DNA of 64,000 nt from Malacoraja senta (lineage: Eukaryota): assembly GCA_038087875.1 (NCBI GenBank), contig CM075991.1, positions 3,100,001 to 3,164,000 on the forward strand, in the 5' to 3' direction. The position numbers were made by a program, and so were the translations under genes. The notes under the pieces are model-generated. The model worked only from the letters and a program-made list of their open reading frames with translations. It had not been told where the DNA came from and searched no databases. Below, piece after piece: positions 28,901-47,175 of this stretch. Each line of letters begins with the position of its first letter. Position 1 is the first letter of the stretch.

Positions 28901-30540
28901 CACAAGACTCACACACAACTTAGTGCAGAATTTACGTTATCCTCTTAATCAACTTCCCCCCTCCCCCAATGCAGCACTTGCCCCTCCCCCACACACAGCA
29001 TTTGCCCCTCCCTCCCACACAGCACCAGAACCACCCCACCCCCACAGCATCTGACACACGGCCCTACCAATTAATGCACAATCTTTTATCTAGGGTAGGG
29101 AAATCAAGAACCAGATGACAAAGGTTTAAGGAGACGAGAAATTTTAATAGAAATCCGAGGGACATCTTTTTTACTCAGAGAATGGTGGGTTTTCTGGTAC
29201 GAGCTGCCAGAGGAGGTACAGCAGCTGTGGCAAGTACTATAACAGCATTTAAAAGACACATGGAGAGATACATGAAAGGAAAGGTTTAGAGCCATATGGG
29301 TCAAATGTGTGCAAATGAGACCACCTTAGATGGGGCAATTTGGTGAGCATGGACAATTGGGGCTGTCGAGCCTGTTTCCATGCTGTATGACTCTATGACA
29401 GATGGATAACTTGCCCCATGTGATGCTGCTAAACAAGATGAGAGCGCAAGGTATTAGAGGGAAGATACCTGCATGGATAGCAGGTTGGCTGAATGGCAGA
29501 AGGCAAAGAGTGGGGAAAAAGGGACTTTTTGTGATAGGCTACTAGTCACTCATGGTGTTCCGTTGGGGTCGAGGTTGAGGCCGCTACTCTTCACATAGCT
29601 TATCAATGATTTGGATGAGGAAATTGATGGATATTTGGCCGTTTGCAGATGATACAAAGATAGATGGAGGAGTAGCTAATGTAGAGGAAGCAGGGAGTCT
29701 GCAGAAGGACAGGTTGGAAGAGGTGGAAGATAGAATATGGTGCAGCAAAGTGTACAGTCATGCACTTTGATAGTAGGACAAAAGTATTTTGTAAATAGGG
29801 AGAGAATTCAGAAATCTGAGGTGCAAATGGACTTGGGAGTGCTGGTGGAGTGGTCCCAAAAGATTAATTTGCAAGTTAAATCGGTAGTAAGGAAGGCAAA
29901 TGTCATGTTAGCAATTATTTTGAGAAGACTAGAATATAAAAGCAGGGATGCAATGCTGATGCTTTGTAGGATGCCCAGTCAGACTGCATTTGGAGTTTTG
30001 TGAACAGTTTTGGTCCACATATCTGAGGAGGGATTTGCTAGCATTGGAGAGAGTCCAGAAGAGATTGATGAGAATGATCCGAAGGAGGAATGGGTTAACG
30101 TATGAGGAGCCTGTGAGGGCCTTGGGCCTGGACTCGTGTGTGTTTAGAAGGATGAGTAGGAATCTCAGTGAAACCTACTAAATAATGAAAGGACCACATA
30201 GAATGGATGTTGAAAGGATATTTCCAGTAGTGGGAGAATCTAGGACCACATGGCACAGCCTCAGAATAAAAGGACATCATTTTAGAATGATGATGAGGAT
30301 ATTATTTTGCCAGAGATTAGTTTATCTGTGGAATTAATTGCCTGAGATGATTGTGGAAGCCAAGGCATTGGGTATTTTTAAAGCAGAGATAGAAAGGTTA
30401 TTAATTAACAAGGGTGTAAAATGTTAGGAAGAAGGTGGGAGAATGGGGTTCAGAGGGAAAGACCAACCATGATTGAATTGTGGAATAGAATTGATGGGCC
30501 AAATGGCCTAATTCTGCTCCTATGACATGAACTTAAAAAC
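26000..30540. mobile_element. Patchwork of degraded CR1 fragments on both strands
   Basis: Repeated CR1 RT motifs (RPHLKYCLQFWSP, SKFAD..K, DLGVLV) and CR1 tails. Confidence 0.75.
27695..27956 (-). mobile_element. Short polyadenylated L1-type insertion with a 15-bp TSD
   Basis: T-rich tail on the left; CTGCTGCAATTGTTG at 27680-27694 and 27957-27971. Confidence 0.75.
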
Positions 30541-30869
30541 ATGAGAGCATGAAGCATTTTTGTTCTCTTCTACATTGGAGACTGTGATACAGGGCACAAT
30601 AAAAATGAATTAAAACTGCATTCGGCATGGTGTGGTATTTTCAGGCGGCTGCTGAGAGTGCGGGTGGGCTGGGTGCTCTGAATTGTTTACAAATTGACAA
30701 AGTCCCTGGTGGTGGAACGATGGAAATGAGAAGAGCACCCACATGGTCTGGATCACACTGTGGACAATGGGATCAACCATCTCCTCTCTGACGGTAAGCT
30801 TCTTTAACTGTATGCTTCTTGGATGCAGGTATCGGCTCGGTGACTCGTTTCCGTTTCAAGTTCAATAGA

Positions 30870-31795
30870 TATTAGACAAGAGGTGCAGGAGTAGGCCATT
30901 CGTCCCTTTGAGCCAGCACCGCCATTCACTGTGATCATGGCTGATCATCCACAATCAGTGCCCCGTTCCTGCCTTCTCACCATATCCCTTGACTCTGCTA
31001 GCTCTCTCTTGAAAGCAGCCAGAGAACCAGCCTCTGAGGCAGAGAATTCCACAGACTCACAACTCTGCGCGTGAAAAGGTTTTTCCTGATCTCCGTTCTA
31101 AATGGCTTAACCCTTATTCTTAAATAGTGGCCCCTGGTTCTGGACTCCCCCAATATCGGGAACATGTTTCCTGCCCCTAGCGTGTCCAAAACCTTAATAA
31201 TCTGATATGTTTCAATAAGATACCCTCTCATCCTTCTAAATTCCAGGGTATACAAGCCCAGCTGCTCCATTCTATCAACATACCACTGTCCGCCATTCTG
31301 GGAATTATCCTTGTGAACCTACGGTGCACTCCCTCAATAGCAAGAATGTCCTTCCTCAAATTTGGAGACCAAAACTGCACACAATACTCCAGGTGTGGTC
31401 TCACTAGGGCCCTGTACAACTGGAGAAGGACCTCTTTGCTCCTATACTCAACTCCTCCTGTTATGAAGGCCAACATGCCATTCACTTTCTTCACTGCCTG
31501 CTGTACCTGCAAGCTTACTTTCAGTGACTGATGAACAAGGACCCCCCCAGATCTCATTGTGCTTCCCCTATTCCCAATTTGACACCATTCAGATAATAAT
31601 CTACCTTCCCGTTTTTGCCACTTAAGTGGATAACCTCACATCTATCCACATTAAAATGCATCTGCCATGCATCTGCCCACTCACCCAACCTGTCCAAGTC
31701 ACCCTGCATCCTCATAGCATCCCCCTCACAGTTCACACAGCCACCCAGCTTTGTGTCATCTGCAAATTTGTTAATGTTACTTTTAATCCCTTCAT
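30870..31795 (-). mobile_element. CR1 LINE 3' fragment
   Basis: SKFADDTKLGG, QGDLDRL and QLYRALVRPHLEYCVQFWSP. Confidence 0.88.
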
Positions 31796-32080
31796 TGGTC
31801 TCTCAAGAGAAGGCGAAAGAAAGAAAATGGATCCGATAAACCAATTAATGGGCAGGTTCTTTCTCGTTGGTGCATTAGAGCAGACTGCAGTTCACGCCTT
31901 ACTTCGTTCACAATCTATTGGTTGTTTGGAGCAAAACATCATTTACTATGAAAACAGTTATCAAAGAATTAACTCTCAGATACGTTAGTGTGTCGGAAGA
32001 TTGTGGAGAGACCATTCTATGTCCGTAGTGGGTGTTCAGTTGAAGTCCTGGTGTCATCGCTGCAATTGGCTGCTGGGAGA

Positions 32081-32126
32081 ATGCTGCGGTCCTTCTTGAC
32101 TTTGATTGTATTGCAGATTTGGAACT
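32081..32126 (+). CDS. SRCR-family gene, signal-peptide exon (MLRSFLTLIVLQIWN-C)
   Basis: ATG with a purine at -3, hydrophobic core, consensus donor GTGAGT at 32127, phase 1 compatible with the next exon. Confidence 0.7.
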
Positions 32127-33328
32127 GTGAGTTCATTGAGAATGCTGAAAGTATTCGGTGATCAATTAACATGATATTTATTATTATACTCTATATTCCC
32201 GTATCTTTCTAGCTACATAATTGCACGTTGTGGTGTATGGACTGTGGATAGTAGAAAATATTTATTCTTTGAATGGAGACACAAGGTCCTGCAGATGCTG
32301 CTTCACGAAAAAATACAAAATTAGCTGGAATAACACAGCGGGTCAGGCAGCATCTCTGGAGAACTTGGATAGATGACAATTCGTGTCGGGACCCTTCTTC
32401 AAACTGTTGCACTCCAGCATTTTGTGGCTTATCACTAAATGTTGTGATGACAAAATTGTGATCTATTAAATTGAAGATACATTTCTGCCACGTGTAAAAT
32501 TTCCACCTGTCCAGATCAGGGGTTTGGGTGTTTTTATAATGAGAGCACAGGAGCAGAGATGAGAAAATATGCTAATTTACTTCAAATGTATGACGGGAGA
32601 AGTGGACTATTCAAGTGTGGCAATTATTTTTTATAAATAATTCATTATTTTCTAATATTTTCTAACTGAGCCATTTGGTAACTCGTTGCTGACTTCTGTC
32701 GGAACAGTGTGTGTTTGGATAATTTCGCCAAGATTAGCACATTTAACGTCCCATTCCGATTTTGTCAAACAGATTTAAACGTGAAATTTCACCCACGGGA
32801 ATTTTCTTCAGTCACAGATCAGTAAACCCGCAAGACTCTGGTCTTGTGTACTGCAATTCAGAAAGAGATTATTAATCTCAATTGATCAGAGGTATAGGGC
32901 GGTCACTGTTGGGACAGGGTTCATCGGAGTCCGGAGAGTATAAACTCCGTGAGGGTGAACAGCATCCAAAGCTGCAGCTGTTGCTGACTGAAGCCGCACA
33001 CAAATACCTGATATTGACATCGACATTTCCACACAGTGGTGGAGTTTAATTTGCTGTTAGATCTTCAAATGTGTGACATTATATATTAAACTGAGTTTTC
33101 AGTTTGCCCCTATGTTTGTCCGGCGATAAGCAGCAACTCATTTTGCTCGGGGCATTTTTGCATTTTCCATTCTGTTTATGTGGAGAATCGCAGTTAGTGA
33201 GATGTTGCAAATGTCCTTAAATTGCTTTACGCTTGTTCGATTCATCTTAAAAGTTCAGTGCAGATTTCCGTGACAAAACGCAGCTTGATATTTTATCTCC
33301 TTCATGTACCTCGTGTTAAATGCACAAT

Positions 33329-33364
<36 letters not shown>

Positions 33365-34628
33365 GCGAGGTATATACAGAACCTTCGGCGGGGCAGCAGC
33401 TGCTGTGGAAAGTATATTAGTCCACGTTGGGACTGATGGACAGAATTTGTGGAAAGAACAGCAGAGCACAAATCATCTTTGTTTCTCTTTCCACAGGTAC
33501 TGAGTGTTTCAGAGTTTTACCTCTGTTTTGAAGATTTCTCCCATTTGCTGCTTTCTAGATAAATTCAGGCATATATTCAGCTGTTGTTTCTCAATCCCCG
33601 TCCACCTCATTGACACTTCTATTTAGTGTCACGTTCAGTCGATGGTATAGTTTCTCAATGTTCACGGTTTTGATTAAGGTTTATTTTAAAAACTCCATCA
33701 AAGGGAAATGCGCATTGCCTGCTCGAGTAGACTTTCGGCAATCTTTACATTTCCTTTTTTATGAAATCGATTCGCCTATATTGAATTTTCTGCAGAATAT
33801 TCAGTTTGCGTTTTATGAAATACCTATACTTTTTTCAGTCTGCTTCCACTTGCACCGCGTCCTGCATTTTCTAAATTCAGTTTATCTCTGTTTGATATGT
33901 CGATCAGAAAATATGTATCTCCGAATGGAGACACGAGGGCCTGCAGATGTTGGTTTACAAAAAAACTAAATTTGTTGGAATAACACGTCGTGTCAGGCTC
34001 TGGAGAACATGGATAGGTGACGTTTCAAATCGGCCCCCTTCTTCAAACTGATGCTGCCTGACCCGCTGGGTTACTGCAGCACTTTATGTCTGTATCTCTA
34101 AATGTTGTGATGAAAACATAGTGACCTATTAAAGTGATGAAAAATGTCTTCCACGTGTGAATTATCTACCTGTCTAGATCAGGGCTTTGGGTGTTTTCTA
34201 ATGTGGGCACAGGAGCAGAGTGAATTTAAAAAATAGGCTAATTCACCTTGACAACGGCTGGATGGAATATTGAAGTGTGTTATTTGCTTTCTATAATTAA
34301 TTCGTTATTTTCTAATGTTTGCTATTTGTGTCCTTGTGTAACAGTCGCTCAATTCCGTCGGAACAGGCTATATATTTGGATAATGTCGCCAAGATGAACA
34401 CATTTAACTTCCCATTCAGATTTTTGAAAACAGATTTAAACGTGATATTTCGTCCACGGGAATTTTCTTCATTCACAGATCAGTCAACCCGCAAGACTCG
34501 GGTCTTGTGTACTGCAATTCAGAAATAGATTATTAATCTAAATTTATCAGAGGTATAGGGCAGTAACTGTTGGGGCAGATTACATCGGAGTCCAGAGAGT
34601 ATAAACTCGTTGAGGTGAACAACAGATG

Positions 34629-34676
34629 CTAACCCTAACCCTAACCCTAACCCTAACCCTAACCCTAACCCTAACC
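34629..34676. repeat. Interstitial telomeric repeat (CTAACC)8, i.e. (TTAGGG)n on the minus strand
   Basis: Eight perfect units directly visible. Confidence 0.97.
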
Positions 34677-34682
34677 CTGAGT

Positions 34683-34711
34683 CTGAAGAAGGGTTTCGGC
34701 CCGAAACGTTA
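34683..34711 (+). ncRNA. Minimal type I hammerhead ribozyme motif in a Penelope pLTR
   Basis: CUGAAGA-A-[GGGU UUCG GCCC]-GAAAC-GUU: conserved core boxes, 4-bp helix II with tetraloop, palindromic ACGU in place of helix III. Confidence 0.7.
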
Positions 34712-35329
34712 CCTATTTCCTTCGCTCCATAGATGCTGCTGCACCCGCTGAGTTTCTCCAGCATTTTTGTGTACCAACAGCATCTAAAGCTGCAGCTGTT
34801 GATGACTGAAGCCGCACACAAATTCCTGTCGCTGATAGTGATCAGTTGCAGCTTTTTTTATCCACCATGCCATACTGTGAACTGAGCATATTTATAAAAT
34901 GTAGTTAGTATCGTGTTGATGGAAAGGTTTTTGTTAATTTTACATCATTAAACGTCATCTTGATGTAGAATGAACACTGTTAACATTAGCATTAATTTTG
35001 TCATTGAACACTCACTTCGATGGATATTAACGCTGACATTTCCACACAGTGGTCAATGATCTTCAAATGCGTCACATTATATATTCACGGAGTTTTCAGT
35101 TTGGCACTATGCGTGTCCGGCTATTAGTAGCAACACATTTATTTCTCGGGGCATTTTTGCATTCTCCATTCTGTTTAGGTGGAGAATCGCGTTAGAGAGA
35201 TGTTGCAATTTTATTTAAATTGCTTTTCACTTGGTCTATTTTGGTTAAATGTTCAGTGCAGTTCCGTAACAAATTTCGCCCTGATATTTTATCTCCTACA
35301 TGCATTTAATTATATTACCCCTGCTTCCA

Positions 35330-35640
35330 CCCAGTTGTAGCGATCTCGGTTCATTCCTTACCACCGGTGCTGTATGACATGCTATTACACTTGCATCTTC
35401 CCTGTGACTGTGCGCGTTTGCCCGGGTGCTCGGGTTTCTTCGCGCATCCCAATGATTTGTTGCTAGGTAGTTTAATTACCTACTGTAAATTATCTTGAGT
35501 AGAATGGTCAAACAGATGAAAGAAGGGTTGATGGGCCCGAATGAAGGGAAATAAGGAGAGGGTAAATTAAATCAACGAGATTGTTGTACGGTGCTTGGTA
35601 TGGAGCCGATGGGTTGAATGGTCTCCTTTTGTCCTATTGC
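35330..35640 (+). mobile_element. Old V-SINE (HE1-like) remnant
   Basis: Degenerate B-box and V-domain (ccctgtgactg..gggtgctc.ggtttc) similar to 51680-51995. Confidence 0.5.
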
Positions 35641-37508
35641 TTCCGCGTGCATTAAATACTTGCATAATCGTAATGCACGTCTGAGAAAATATGATCCTAA
35701 TGATTCCCAAATTGTCAGATACGATTGTGCTGTTTATATTATTATTCGTGAGATATAACGCTAAATTAATGAGACTGTTGTGCATGCGATCAATTGTCCA
35801 CTGCATTGTCCACGGGCTGAGTTTGTGCAATCGGTGAAAGGCATAGAATTGAATAACATTATCTAGATTCAAAAATTGTAACGCGGGTTTGAAACTGTGA
35901 ACGTAAATAGACTTTCCCTACTTCTTGAAAATCGGTTAAAAGAAAATGGCAACTCGCGAGACAGTATCTGTTCCTGGAGCCAAGTTGATAACAGCACTCA
36001 GGTGTGGGAGCAAGTCGTGCCCAGTTATTGCTGGACAACGCAGGACACAAACGAACCAACGTGTAACGGAATATCATTCAAGCATTCTCCACAAGCAAAT
36101 CTGAAAATAAATAGAGTCATAGTCGTAAATATTAGCATCGCCGCACCTGTATTAAGATACTGGAAAGTAGTATAGAAATCGGGGGCAGAATATCTTCAGT
36201 AGTCTGGGATCAGGTCATTTGTCCATCATGTGGTAGATGGTGTTGAACACAAAAAAATATCCTGCAAATCCATCGGAGGGAATATCATCGAAAATTTTGT
36301 TGGAGGGGAAATCAAGGAATGGCTGTCCGCAGAAAATTAATATGATCGAGTTTGGCACACGGGTCAGTTCACTTTGTATCGCCTGTGGGAAATAAAATTG
36401 AAATGAGAATCTGAACTCGTGACAGTATGAACCTCACAGACAATAGCTATTTCAAGAGTGTTTTTTTTAAACCTGTCAAATGTACTGAAAACTGAAAAAA
36501 ATGAAAAGATTTATTCTAGGGGAATAAGGATGGGGTTATTCACTGTTAATTGCATTATGAATTTTCCCATGCGAATTATCAGTTAGAGTGGCAACACAAT
36601 GTATTTTCAAGGCTACGTAAAATGTGCCCGAACCTGATAGTTCACCAGAGGCGATAGGAGAGTTGTCGTGGCACGACAGGCATAGTTATCAGGTATATTG
36701 TTCCCTGTCGTTGGAAGGATGCAATTAAGTGTAGGAAGGATGCAATTAAGATGGAAAGAATGCAGTGAAGATTTACGAGACGTTTCCAGCACTTAAGGAC
36801 CCGAGTTGTGGAGAGAGATTGGGCAAGCTAGGACTTTATTCCTTGGAGCGCAGGAGACCAAGGGAAGATGGAGGAGCATATAATCACGAGAGGAATTAAT
36901 AAAGTGAATGGCACAGAGTATTTTAAACCAGGATAGGAGAAATTAAAACAACAGAGGCTAAAGGTTTTAAGATGAGAAGGGAAATATTTAATAGGATTCA
37001 GAGGGGCGTTTTTTCCAGACACAGGGTGGTGGGTATATGGAACAAGCTGCCAGGGGAGGCAGCTGGGGCAGGTATTTAAGGTATTTAATGCATTTAAAAT
37101 TCATTGATCGGGTACAAGCATTGGAACGTTTTAGAGAGACATGGGCCAAACGTGGGCAAATTGAACTTGCTTAGATGGGACAATCTGGTCGGCATGGACC
37201 AAATTTACCACATCGGTAAATTGTATCCAGATCTCTGTAGATCTAACAATAAATGTAATTGCAACAGAGACACGATACGATTTTCTGACTGCTGATATTT
37301 ATTTACAGTAACATCTAAAAAAGCAGGTGGGAAGGTGAAACAACTCTCTGTAGCGGTTCGGAACGCTGCCTCTCAGGTCACTGTCGGGACTTGTGATGGT
37401 GTCATTAATGAGATGCCCACCTCCCCATGGACCCATTCGCTCCCACATCCCAACCCCATCACTCCACCCGTCACACATCCAAATCTCATTCTTTATTTCT
37501 CATTTCAG

Positions 37509-45148: not shown

Positions 45149-46706
45149 TCAAAATTTCAAATCAAATTCAAAATTTAATTGTTTTGTATGTTGATAACTT
45201 GGTCTGAGTATATCTTGTTTAACTTATTATTTTATTATTTTATTATTTGCCAAAATATATATCTCAATAGCACAATGATAGAAAACTAATTTTCCCACAC
45301 ACCATTGGTAAGTCTGGAGATGTTTTTAATCATAAATTTAGCTTCAGAAGCGTTTTCTATTTGCATGTAAAAACCCACTTGAGAACCATGGGCAATTTTA
45401 ACATTTTATGGTCAGATTTATCACTTCTGAAACTTTTTAGATACCAAAGGAATCAAGAAAAAACACAAATAACGTCTCACTGTTGATGAAATGCTGTGAG
45501 CAAACGTGATAATTCCCAATATTTTCAATCTTGATATCTGCACGGCCAATGTTCGCCAACCACTTTAGCTGTTGTTGTTCCTTCACCCGTCGCTTCTCTC
45601 TACCAACATTTCTCCTCACTTTTGGAATTCTGAAGTAGGATAAATGTCTCCCCCGATTTCCACAATTATTTACAGTGACAAAATTGACCATTTCGACGGT
45701 TTTTAACAGGTAAGAAAGTACCCGTTTTGTGTGTTAAAAGTGTGTGCCGTAGGCTGCCATGTCCTCCAGACGGATTGAGCTGCTCCGTGCGTCATGCCCT
45801 TTGACCCGATGACCTTACATGCAACCCCCCTATTATCAACACTCTCAGTCCTGCTGCAGGGGCTCGACCCCGAACGTCCACAGTTCCTCTCCCCCACAGA
45901 TGCTGCTCCACCCTCTGAGATGCTCCAGCAGTTTTTTTTGCACCAGGTTCCATCATCTGCCGTCTCTCGTCAATAGTGCGTTTTATTGTCACATATATTA
46001 GTTGTTAACACAGTGAAATTATTTTCCTTACAAACAGTCCAGTGGAGTAATACCATACCCCCGATCCCCAATTAGCAAGTGTACAGGAATCATCTACCGA
46101 GCCACATGCAGGAGGAGCCATGTTCTGGTGCCATGTTCAAAATCCGGGCTCTAGTTCTAACGAGCGGTGCCTGTTCCAGGCAAGTCCCAGGCTGTTGCTG
46201 GCCTCCAGCCGCCTACGACCTTGGACGCCACGTCGCTCTCTTCACCCATCCTTTGTTGCCCAGGGTGCCTCCTGCAGCCGATCACGAGGGCGGGGTAAGC
46301 CCGACCCTGGTTCCCTCTCCTTTCCTCTCCAACTGGCCTTGCTCCTCGCCCGGACATCACTGGCTCCATCCTCCGGCAGACGAGCGGAGGCCAGCACAGC
46401 AGCTCCCCCCTCCCGGTTTCTATGTCTATGTTTCTATGGAAAGTCTGCAACTTCATTAACCTGGCAGAGAAAATGCAATGCAATTCGTTCAGGCTGAAAT
46501 GAAGTGTCGCAGTCACAGAGGGAATGAACGAATAATGTGCTAGAGGAAATGGTTATGGTGCTGGATATGGGGTCAGTAAGTGAACTGCTTTCCCCTGATT
46601 TGTTCTCAAACTTCCTGAGTATTATCAGTTGACCCATGAAAGCCTTCCTGGACATTCCTGAATGCTGCCTTTTAGATGATAGAAAGATGTTGAGGAGCCA
46701 ACAGAT

Positions 46707-47175
46707 AGATACAAAAAGCTGGAGTAACTCAGCGGGACGGGCAGCATCTCTGGAGAGAAGGAGTGGGTGACGTTTCGGGTCGAGACCCTTCTTCAGACCC
46801 GAAATGTCACCCATTCCTTCTCTGCAGAGATGATGCCTCACCCGCTGAGGTACACCAGCATTTTGTCTCTACCTTTGATTTTACCAGCATGTGCAGTTCT
46901 TTCTTACACATACTGCCTGTCCCACTGAGTTTCTCCAGCTTTTTGTGTCTATTTTCTATTTAAACCAGCACCTTTGTGTAAGCAGGAACTGCAGATGCTC
47001 GTTTAAACTGAGAATAGACACAAAAAGCTGGAGTAACTCAGTGAGAGAAGCTGCATCTCTGGATAGAAGAAATGGGTGACGTTTTGGATCGAGATTCTTG
47101 GTCACCTATTCCTTCTCTACAGAGATAGTGTCTGTCCCGCTGAGCTACTCCAGCTTTTTGTGTTTATCTGCAGTT
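46707..47175. repeat. Inverted Penelope pLTR pairs; best hammerhead core at 46769-46796 (-)
   Basis: Arms 46707-46780 and 46797-46870 are reverse complements; minus strand reads CUGAAGA-A-GGGU CUCG ACCC-GAAAC-GUC; a second pair lies at ~47015-47165. Confidence 0.75.

Follow-up and report, generated by a model that had tools for sequence, protein, structure and literature searches.

Foreign sequence at the 5′ junction of a retroelement copy can stem from a second template, as in U6/L1 chimeras. Athena and Coprina, the Penelope-like elements (PLEs) known from Gladyshev and Arkhipova in 2007, are reported to lack an endonuclease, to bear telomeric repeats in reverse complement at the element's 3′ end and to be attached to chromosome ends. 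Endonuclease-encoding PLEs are described, in PMC8557442, with an optional tail of 30-40 bp and inverted, 5′-truncated partners, and in PAc of the green anole reverse transcription can begin at either of two neighbouring internal sites, with both DNA strands being cut and extended (PMC11167929). In LINE-1 twin priming, a second 3′ end is used before sealing (Ostertag and Kazazian, as far as cited in PMC2246262). Interstitial repeats made by telomerase at breaks, some with fragments of the telomerase RNA component (TERC), are documented in vertebrates including sharks (PMC2246262; PMC8537989). Here, we analyse a 150-nt insert that joins a telomeric tract to the 5′-truncated end of a PLE in a 64,000-nt stretch of the Malacoraja senta genome (GenBank assembly GCA_038087875.1, contig CM075991.1, positions 3,100,001 to 3,164,000). 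This stretch is referred to as the window and corresponds to C15:3100001-3164000 in the 1.94 Gb of genome searched.

The whole insert occupies positions 34626-34775 of the window, between two copies of AACAG, and the layout given in the original prediction (AACAG, ATG, repeats, PLE unit, AACAG) proved correct to the base. Its parts and the corresponding empty site are the following.

32953-32967, + strand: empty site in unit 1, GGGTGAACAGCATCC, with AACAG at 32958-32962, uninterrupted.
34621-34625, + strand: left copy of the target-site duplication, AACAG; one copy is present in the empty site GGTGAACAACAGCATC of 9/10 closest paralogs.
34626-34628, + strand: filler of 3 nt, ATG, separating the target from the telomeric tract and missing in the empty sites.
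34629-34678, + strand: telomeric tract, C strand, (CTAACC)8 followed by CT, 50 nt, no variant repeat.
34679, + strand: single filler G at the junction of tract and element, where the canonical element has C (CAGT).
34680-34775, + strand: 5′-truncated, 3′-terminal 96 nt of an endonuclease-encoding PLE.
34776-34780, + strand: right copy of the target-site duplication, AACAG.

On the minus strand, the tract at 34629-34678 is the telomeric G strand, AGGG...GGGTTAG. The PLE fragment (34680-34775) reads AGT followed by CTGAAGA...TTTTTGTGTACC, also written AGT CTGAAGAAGGG...CTCCAGCATTTTTGTGTACC; it starts 3 nt before CTGAAGA, at a 5′-end hotspot of the family, and ends at GTGTACC, the proximal 3′ end of the family. 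Neither the 25-mer core nor a telomeric 18-mer turned up in any of 100 window shuffles. The same insert was found on contig C173 with 1 difference in 3,042 nt; this copy probably represents the second haplotype or the same region assembled twice.

Alignment of the insert-bearing unit 2 with unit 1, which lies about 1.66 kb upstream and is 84-94% alike block by block, revealed GGGTGAACAGCATCC to be uninterrupted at 32953-32967, as had been claimed. The claim of a two-unit duplication had to be given up, the flank belonging instead to a family with 35 genome matches. In 10/10 closest paralogs, which are 96-97% identical (unit 1 only 89%), the site is uninterrupted as well, reading GGTGA[A/G]CAACAGCATC in 9/10 and GGTGAACAGCATC in 1/10. 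From these uninterrupted sites, the pre-insertion site is GGTGAACAACAGCATC and the target duplication AACAG. In contigs from two public sequencing runs (X15, X16), position 34619 is followed immediately by 34775, and the left flank is empty in the same way in a third run; since the paralogs are many, these bridging contigs are not callable as orthologues and may be paralogous. The best share among the public runs was 0.47, and none of them resembles the source individual.

Because the empty sites lack both the repeat and the PLE fragment, and because one target duplication surrounds the two, repeat and fragment are read as one insertion. We conclude, with high confidence, that they entered the site in a single event, which sustains the prediction that the two had arrived together.

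The flank family (34380-34625 and 32719-32964) has at least 35 copies across C15 and many small contigs, several being 96-97% alike, and looks like a segmentally duplicated cluster. An open reading frame (ORF) scan of 30500-37500 gave no evident coding sequence.

The element is abundant. The 28-mer starting at CTGAAGA has 19,101 exact matches in the genome and the 12-mer anchor TCTGAAGAAGGG has 170,510; the copy number is given here as at least 170,510 anchor copies, and the 3′ anchor counts 80,906 copies. Over its last 93 nt, which start with CTGAAGA, the fragment in the window is identical to 12/32 sampled unit instances, which indicates that the insertion is young. Upstream, canonical copies are pyrimidine-rich, ending ...CCCCCTATCAGT in 14/30 sampled copies. 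An 870-aa ORF upstream of the canonical copy L056 contains a reverse transcriptase (RT) followed by a C-terminal GIY-YIG domain, both scoring just under the respective Pfam cut-off: RVT_1 with 27.9 bits (cut-off 29.6) at residues 354-523 and GIY-YIG with 20.0 bits (cut-off 22.6) at residues 774-807. The same order, RT before GIY-YIG, is repeated in L033. Domain order and position fit an endonuclease-encoding element despite the sub-cut-off scores, and the family is assigned to that kind.

Copies of the family end at GTGTACC or about 35 nt beyond (TTCGATTTTCCAGCATCTGCAGTTCC...), and head-to-head inverted partners are common among them (e.g. L010, L023 and L024). Target duplications measure 5 bp at the window locus and 11-21 bp in L012, L020, L026, L027 and L031; ordinary copies have 8-21-bp duplications and no telomeric repeats. 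At the 5′ side, 16/30 distinct sampled copies break off a few bases before CTGAAGA, several directly abutting the target duplication. As the fragment in the window starts at position -3, its tract is located at the usual complementary DNA (cDNA) end of the family, that is, exactly where the cDNA 3′ end would be. This usual end would correspond to the 5′ end of a short template, provided that reverse transcription starts at the proximal internal site. The hotspot itself may be the transcript start or may result from run-off from the proximal RT start site. The upstream pyrimidine tract ending in CAG resembles a 3′ splice site. Pairs of the 28-mer core, arranged head-to-head one base apart, were seen at C1:5164104-5164160 and C1:8231934-8231990; these are inverted dimers joined exactly at the 5′-end hotspot.

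A genome-wide census of such junctions, defined by at least two telomeric units within 16 nt before the 5′ anchor, yielded eight independent junctions. Five have the C-rich strand in front of the element, namely the window locus (with its C173 copy), C1:258575013, C1077:23224, C3:1374152 and a doubtful one on C7 (L087), which has just two repeats, apparently within the element's own pyrimidine-rich upstream region. Three are G-rich (C23:2653937, C4699:3346 and C12:27008153). The first junction matches all lay on the plus strand and a later one on the minus strand, and reverse-complement patterns re-found known loci. With five C-rich (one doubtful) against three G-rich junctions, the predicted rule of C-rich polarity fell.

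At the other side of the element, telomeric repeats of either polarity, looked for 3-24 nt past the 3′ anchor, were found at 0/80,906 copies. A telomeric tract as the insertion target of the element was considered and rejected, there being no tract at the element's 3′ side. Likewise, no run of at least two telomeric units was present upstream of canonical copies in eight stretches of 5 kb; the idea that the tract is a fixed part of the family consensus, raised beforehand as a possible refutation, was dropped with these canonical upstream copies free of telomeric units.

The frequency of about 8 events per 170,510 anchors means a rare, recurring accident and no regular coupling; the coupling of Penelope retrotransposition to telomerase that the original prediction had envisaged did not hold up, and no dependence of the element on telomerase is shown. 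Athena-like behaviour, with the element relying regularly on telomerase or on telomeric priming, would suit the position of the tract at a 5′-truncated end, as described for endonuclease-less elements, and the sister-group relationship of PLE RTs and telomerase RTs (PMC8557442). Against it stand the rarity of the junctions, the endonuclease domain of the element, the 3′ anchors devoid of adjoining tracts and the ordinary copies with their repeat-free 8-21-bp duplications, so that we hold it to be highly improbable. The analogy to Athena and Coprina drawn beforehand is not supported, given the GIY-YIG domain, the interstitial position within a target duplication and the 0/80,906 telomeric 3′ anchors.

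Two further telomeric patches, at C6:32726293 (L104) and C11:10424437 (L117), were seen in passing to touch PLE pieces at other positions. One adjoins a PLE 5′ end whose truncation point falls within helix II, and has GTGCA as its flank towards the target; the other separates the 3′ end of a PLE unit from the tail extension.

The anatomy of the other junctions was then compared. C12 has an 8-bp duplication, GTTCAGGA, around ACCAGAG, the tract and the unit. C23 has a 9-bp duplication on either side of an inverted copy, a forward piece formed by snap-back (ending CCATAG), five G-rich repeats and the unit. The 14-bp duplication of C4699, with one mismatch, contains an inverted tail besides tract and unit, and the imperfect duplication of C3, about 12-16 bp long, contains an inverted copy besides tract and unit. 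C1 consists of two head-to-head copies separated by the tract, and its possible 13-bp duplication overlaps an element motif. C1077 lies inside another repeat and, in comparison with five other copies of that repeat, has no duplication and about 4 nt lost.

Polarity had been thought of as a test for telomerase; it was abandoned, with both polarities found and two 3′ ends in each intermediate. In vitro, a PLE protein cuts and extends both strands (PMC11167929). Nicking and extension of both strands lead to two converging 3′ ends, and with them to both polarities and to head-to-head copies; polarity is therefore uninformative on telomerase.

More specific evidence came from the telomerase RNA. 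Its gene was located with the Rfam model Telomerase-vert at C8:12633527-12633993 on the minus strand (173 bits, gathering score 70; positions 1501-1967 of the sampled locus L085). The template region reads ...CUAACCCUAAUGCAC, given also as ...CUUCUAACCCUAAUGCAC and ...CGCUUCUAACCCUAAUGCACGG, and, in short, CUAACCCUAAU with GCAC after it. Next to the 5′ end of the element, the C-rich tracts of C1077 and C3 have the end ...CCCTAATGCA, so that TGCATTAGG is the start of the G strand, either immediately at the cDNA end or beyond 4 nt of filler. This start is a copy of the template together with the non-telomeric 3′ flank (TGCA) of the telomerase RNA. Such a flank copy is present at 2/4 clear C-rich loci; the window locus is without it. 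Among the G-rich junctions, 3 nt are in register with the primer end at C23 (TAG) and at C4699 (AGG), and 1 nt at C12. An in-register start is used as a criterion for telomerase in PMC2246262, where 3 nt or more are expected by chance in <1.6% of loci.

Genome-wide, 1,361 in-register tract ends were counted, compared with 355 in a backward-read control. TGCA follows at 64/1,361 of these ends, about 9 times the compositional expectation, versus 0 in the reversed control. The 64 short interstitial tracts concerned end ...CCCTAACCCTAATGCA, which is telomerase RNA template plus flank, and a few TGCA ends extend to TGCACGG or TGCACGGTT (L102, L105, L117). Patches templated by telomerase RNA thus seem to be common in this genome; they are described for vertebrates including sharks in PMC8537989. 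The sole variant repeats in the C1077 (L006) and C3 (L086) tracts are TTAGGA on the G strand. These could come from copying of the 3′-most template U, a plain transition being an equally simple explanation.

The marks at the sister loci bear on two other sources of the tract. If the RT of the element had switched, at the RNA 5′ end or at a top-strand primer, to an RNA of telomeric repeats, either TERRA or a C-rich transcript, the fillers of 1-4 nt seen at the junctions would be typical, and the snap-back and head-to-head structures in the C23, C1 and C3 inserts show that the enzyme or its intermediate does switch; the occurrence of both polarities (5 to 3) and the lack of a telomerase-specific mark in the window are compatible with it as well. 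The TGCA at C1077 and C3 is non-telomeric and matches the telomerase RNA flank, which copying of TERRA cannot yield. Jumps to random RNAs would moreover predict chimeras with far more abundant RNAs, and a G strand on the cDNA would need a C-rich telomeric RNA. We consider such template switching unlikely.

The other source would be a double-stranded telomeric DNA fragment, extrachromosomal or from a broken telomere, captured by end joining at the open 5′ junction. Capture is named as the alternative to telomerase in PMC2246262; random ligation predicts the near-equal polarity observed (5 to 3), and the window locus has fillers at both ends of the tract (ATG, G). The TERC-flank copies at two loci, the in-register 3-nt starts at two others and the short tract of the window without a variant repeat speak against capture, which is judged to be quite unlikely.

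By comparison with these two sources, extension by telomerase fits the marks at the sister loci better, and several points weigh against it. In the window, the G strand starts AGGG after the C filler and ends GGGTTAG before CAT, with no TERC-flank copy and 0 nt in register (ACT-C-AGGG). At C1077, TGCA overlaps 2 nt of the element's own CAGT, so that TG is shared and CA alone counts as independent. A G-strand end at the template boundary (TTAG) was seen in just 2-3/8 loci, which is not significant. Polarity does not discriminate between telomerase, a copied telomeric RNA and a ligated telomeric fragment. Adjacent pairs are not clearly more numerous than a rough estimate of chance would give (about 1-6 per polarity). 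Finally, no read or contig aligned across the tract at 34629-34678, and C173 may derive from the same individual.

The last two points touch on explanations without any joint event. Chance adjacency, two unrelated events or later growth of the tract at the junction would draw on the expectation computed from 1,361 tract ends and 170,510 anchors, which agrees with the observed counts in order of magnitude, so that the counts alone prove little; the estimate is a rough one, since arrays hold clustered tract ends and a guessed factor had to stand for the other registers, and the zero at the 3′ side suggests that it is too high. AACAG surrounds both parts in the window and neither part occurs in any empty site; 1 nt between tract and element leaves no room for a separate duplication, the same enclosure recurs at four other loci, and the 8 loci at the 5′ side face 0 at the 3′ side. 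This makes independent arrival very unlikely. Similarly, an assembly artefact that joined telomeric reads to the repeat would be in line with the unaligned tract and with the difficulty of assembling both telomeric and PLE sequence. The clean 5-bp duplication, the identical structure in contigs C15 and C173 and analogous duplication-bounded structures on seven other contigs leave the artefact a most improbable explanation.

In the sequence of events proposed with telomerase, the RT of the element would start at the internal site GTGTACC and run about 96 nt to the RNA 5′ end. Before the 5′ junction is sealed, the cDNA 3′ end (bottom strand) would face a target-primed or snap-back product (top strand), and telomerase would add TTAGGG repeats to a free 3′ end such as that of the cDNA. 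Addition of the G strand to the cDNA would give C-rich repeats before the sense unit (window locus, C1077, C3 and C1), and addition to the target-derived top-strand end would give G-rich repeats (C12, C23 and C4699). The intermediate would then be closed by end joining or microhomology, leaving fillers of 1-4 nt.

The tract in the window was, on balance, probably made by telomerase, judging from the sister loci and from precedent. Of the predicted extension of the cDNA 3′ end, the position of the tract and the flank marks at C1077 and C3 are in favour; the proposed comparison of junction bases with the telomerase RNA template succeeded at these two loci and left the window locus itself unmarked. 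The wider proposition, that vertebrate germ-line telomerase recurrently primes on run-off cDNA or on nicked target ends of this endonuclease-encoding PLE and leaves short caps within insertions that are otherwise ordinary, some of them bearing a telomerase RNA flank copy, we rate as evenly balanced.

The PLE fragment also contains the following feature, assigned by inspection against the description of minimal hammerhead ribozymes in PMC4209133.

34683-34710, + strand: minimal hammerhead-like motif.

It consists of the CTGAAGA core (34683-34689), a bulged A (34690), helix II with GGGT/UUCG/GCCC (34691-34702), GAAAC (34703-34707) and GT-T with a predicted cut after 34710; helix I has only about 2 bp. 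No Rfam hammerhead match was obtained in the window (gathering score), in 34560-34860 (E<=10) or in four loci with fuller copies (E<=1), and the predicted fold of the unit was no better than that of shuffles (z-score -0.34). Of the hammerhead announced in the original prediction, the core boxes around helix II were thus found by inspection and a match to an Rfam hammerhead model was not. We regard it, from its sequence, as a hammerhead-like motif of the known PLE type and as a putative ribozyme. A PLE copy of another subfamily lies on the minus strand at 46700-46950, with helix II GGGTCTCGACCC and an inverted upstream arm that is able to pair with the tail over about 60 nt.

In a limited literature search, no account turned up of endonuclease-encoding PLEs with a telomeric tract at the 5′ junction, nor of a telomerase-made array fused to a retroelement fragment inside one duplication. 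If telomerase does prime at them, the junctions would be fossil snapshots of unsealed Penelope insertion, showing its free 3′ ends and cDNA stops. They would provide a natural record of telomerase reaching retrotransposition intermediates and would be the internal-site counterpart of the capping known from endonuclease-less relatives at chromosome ends. The patching of breaks by telomerase would then extend from ordinary breaks to those made by a transposon, the two enzymes being evolutionary sisters.

Compared with known systems, the motif in the fragment resembles the minimal type I PLE hammerheads (Cervera and De la Pena 2014, PMC4209133) in its CUGANGA and GAAA boxes, the bulged base before a long helix II, the absence of a helix III of its own (palindromic ACGU) and the very short helix I. 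It differs from them in being unmatched by the Rfam models, and the fragment has only 3 nt left of the helix I 5′ strand. With canonical Penelope/Poseidon-type elements, the family shares an RT with a C-terminal GIY-YIG domain, two 3′ ends about 35 nt apart, inverted partners, a hammerhead motif that precedes the 3′ end by about 70-90 nt and, presumably, the use of both strands as primers; the telomeric tract at the 5′ junction is outside their described architecture.

Athena and Coprina belong to the same retroelement class and are likewise described with a hammerhead motif near the 3′ end and repeats at the 5′-truncated end. Unlike them, the present family encodes GIY-YIG, has telomeric repeats at 0/80,906 3′ anchors and inserts internally with target duplications. 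The inversions, and the foreign 5′-junction sequence gained via a second 3′ end or template before sealing, recall LINE-1 twin priming and chimeras, in a different element class with a different enzyme and with telomeric sequence as the addition. The telomerase-made interstitial repeats of PMC2246262 and PMC8537989 are matched in the short, exact array acquired in one step, the empty sites, the small fillers and duplications and the sister loci with TERC-copied nucleotides or in-register starts. The present case departs from them in that the break would be a retrotransposition intermediate, with a cDNA end or nicked target as the likely primer, and in that the tract is fused to a retroelement fragment within one duplication.

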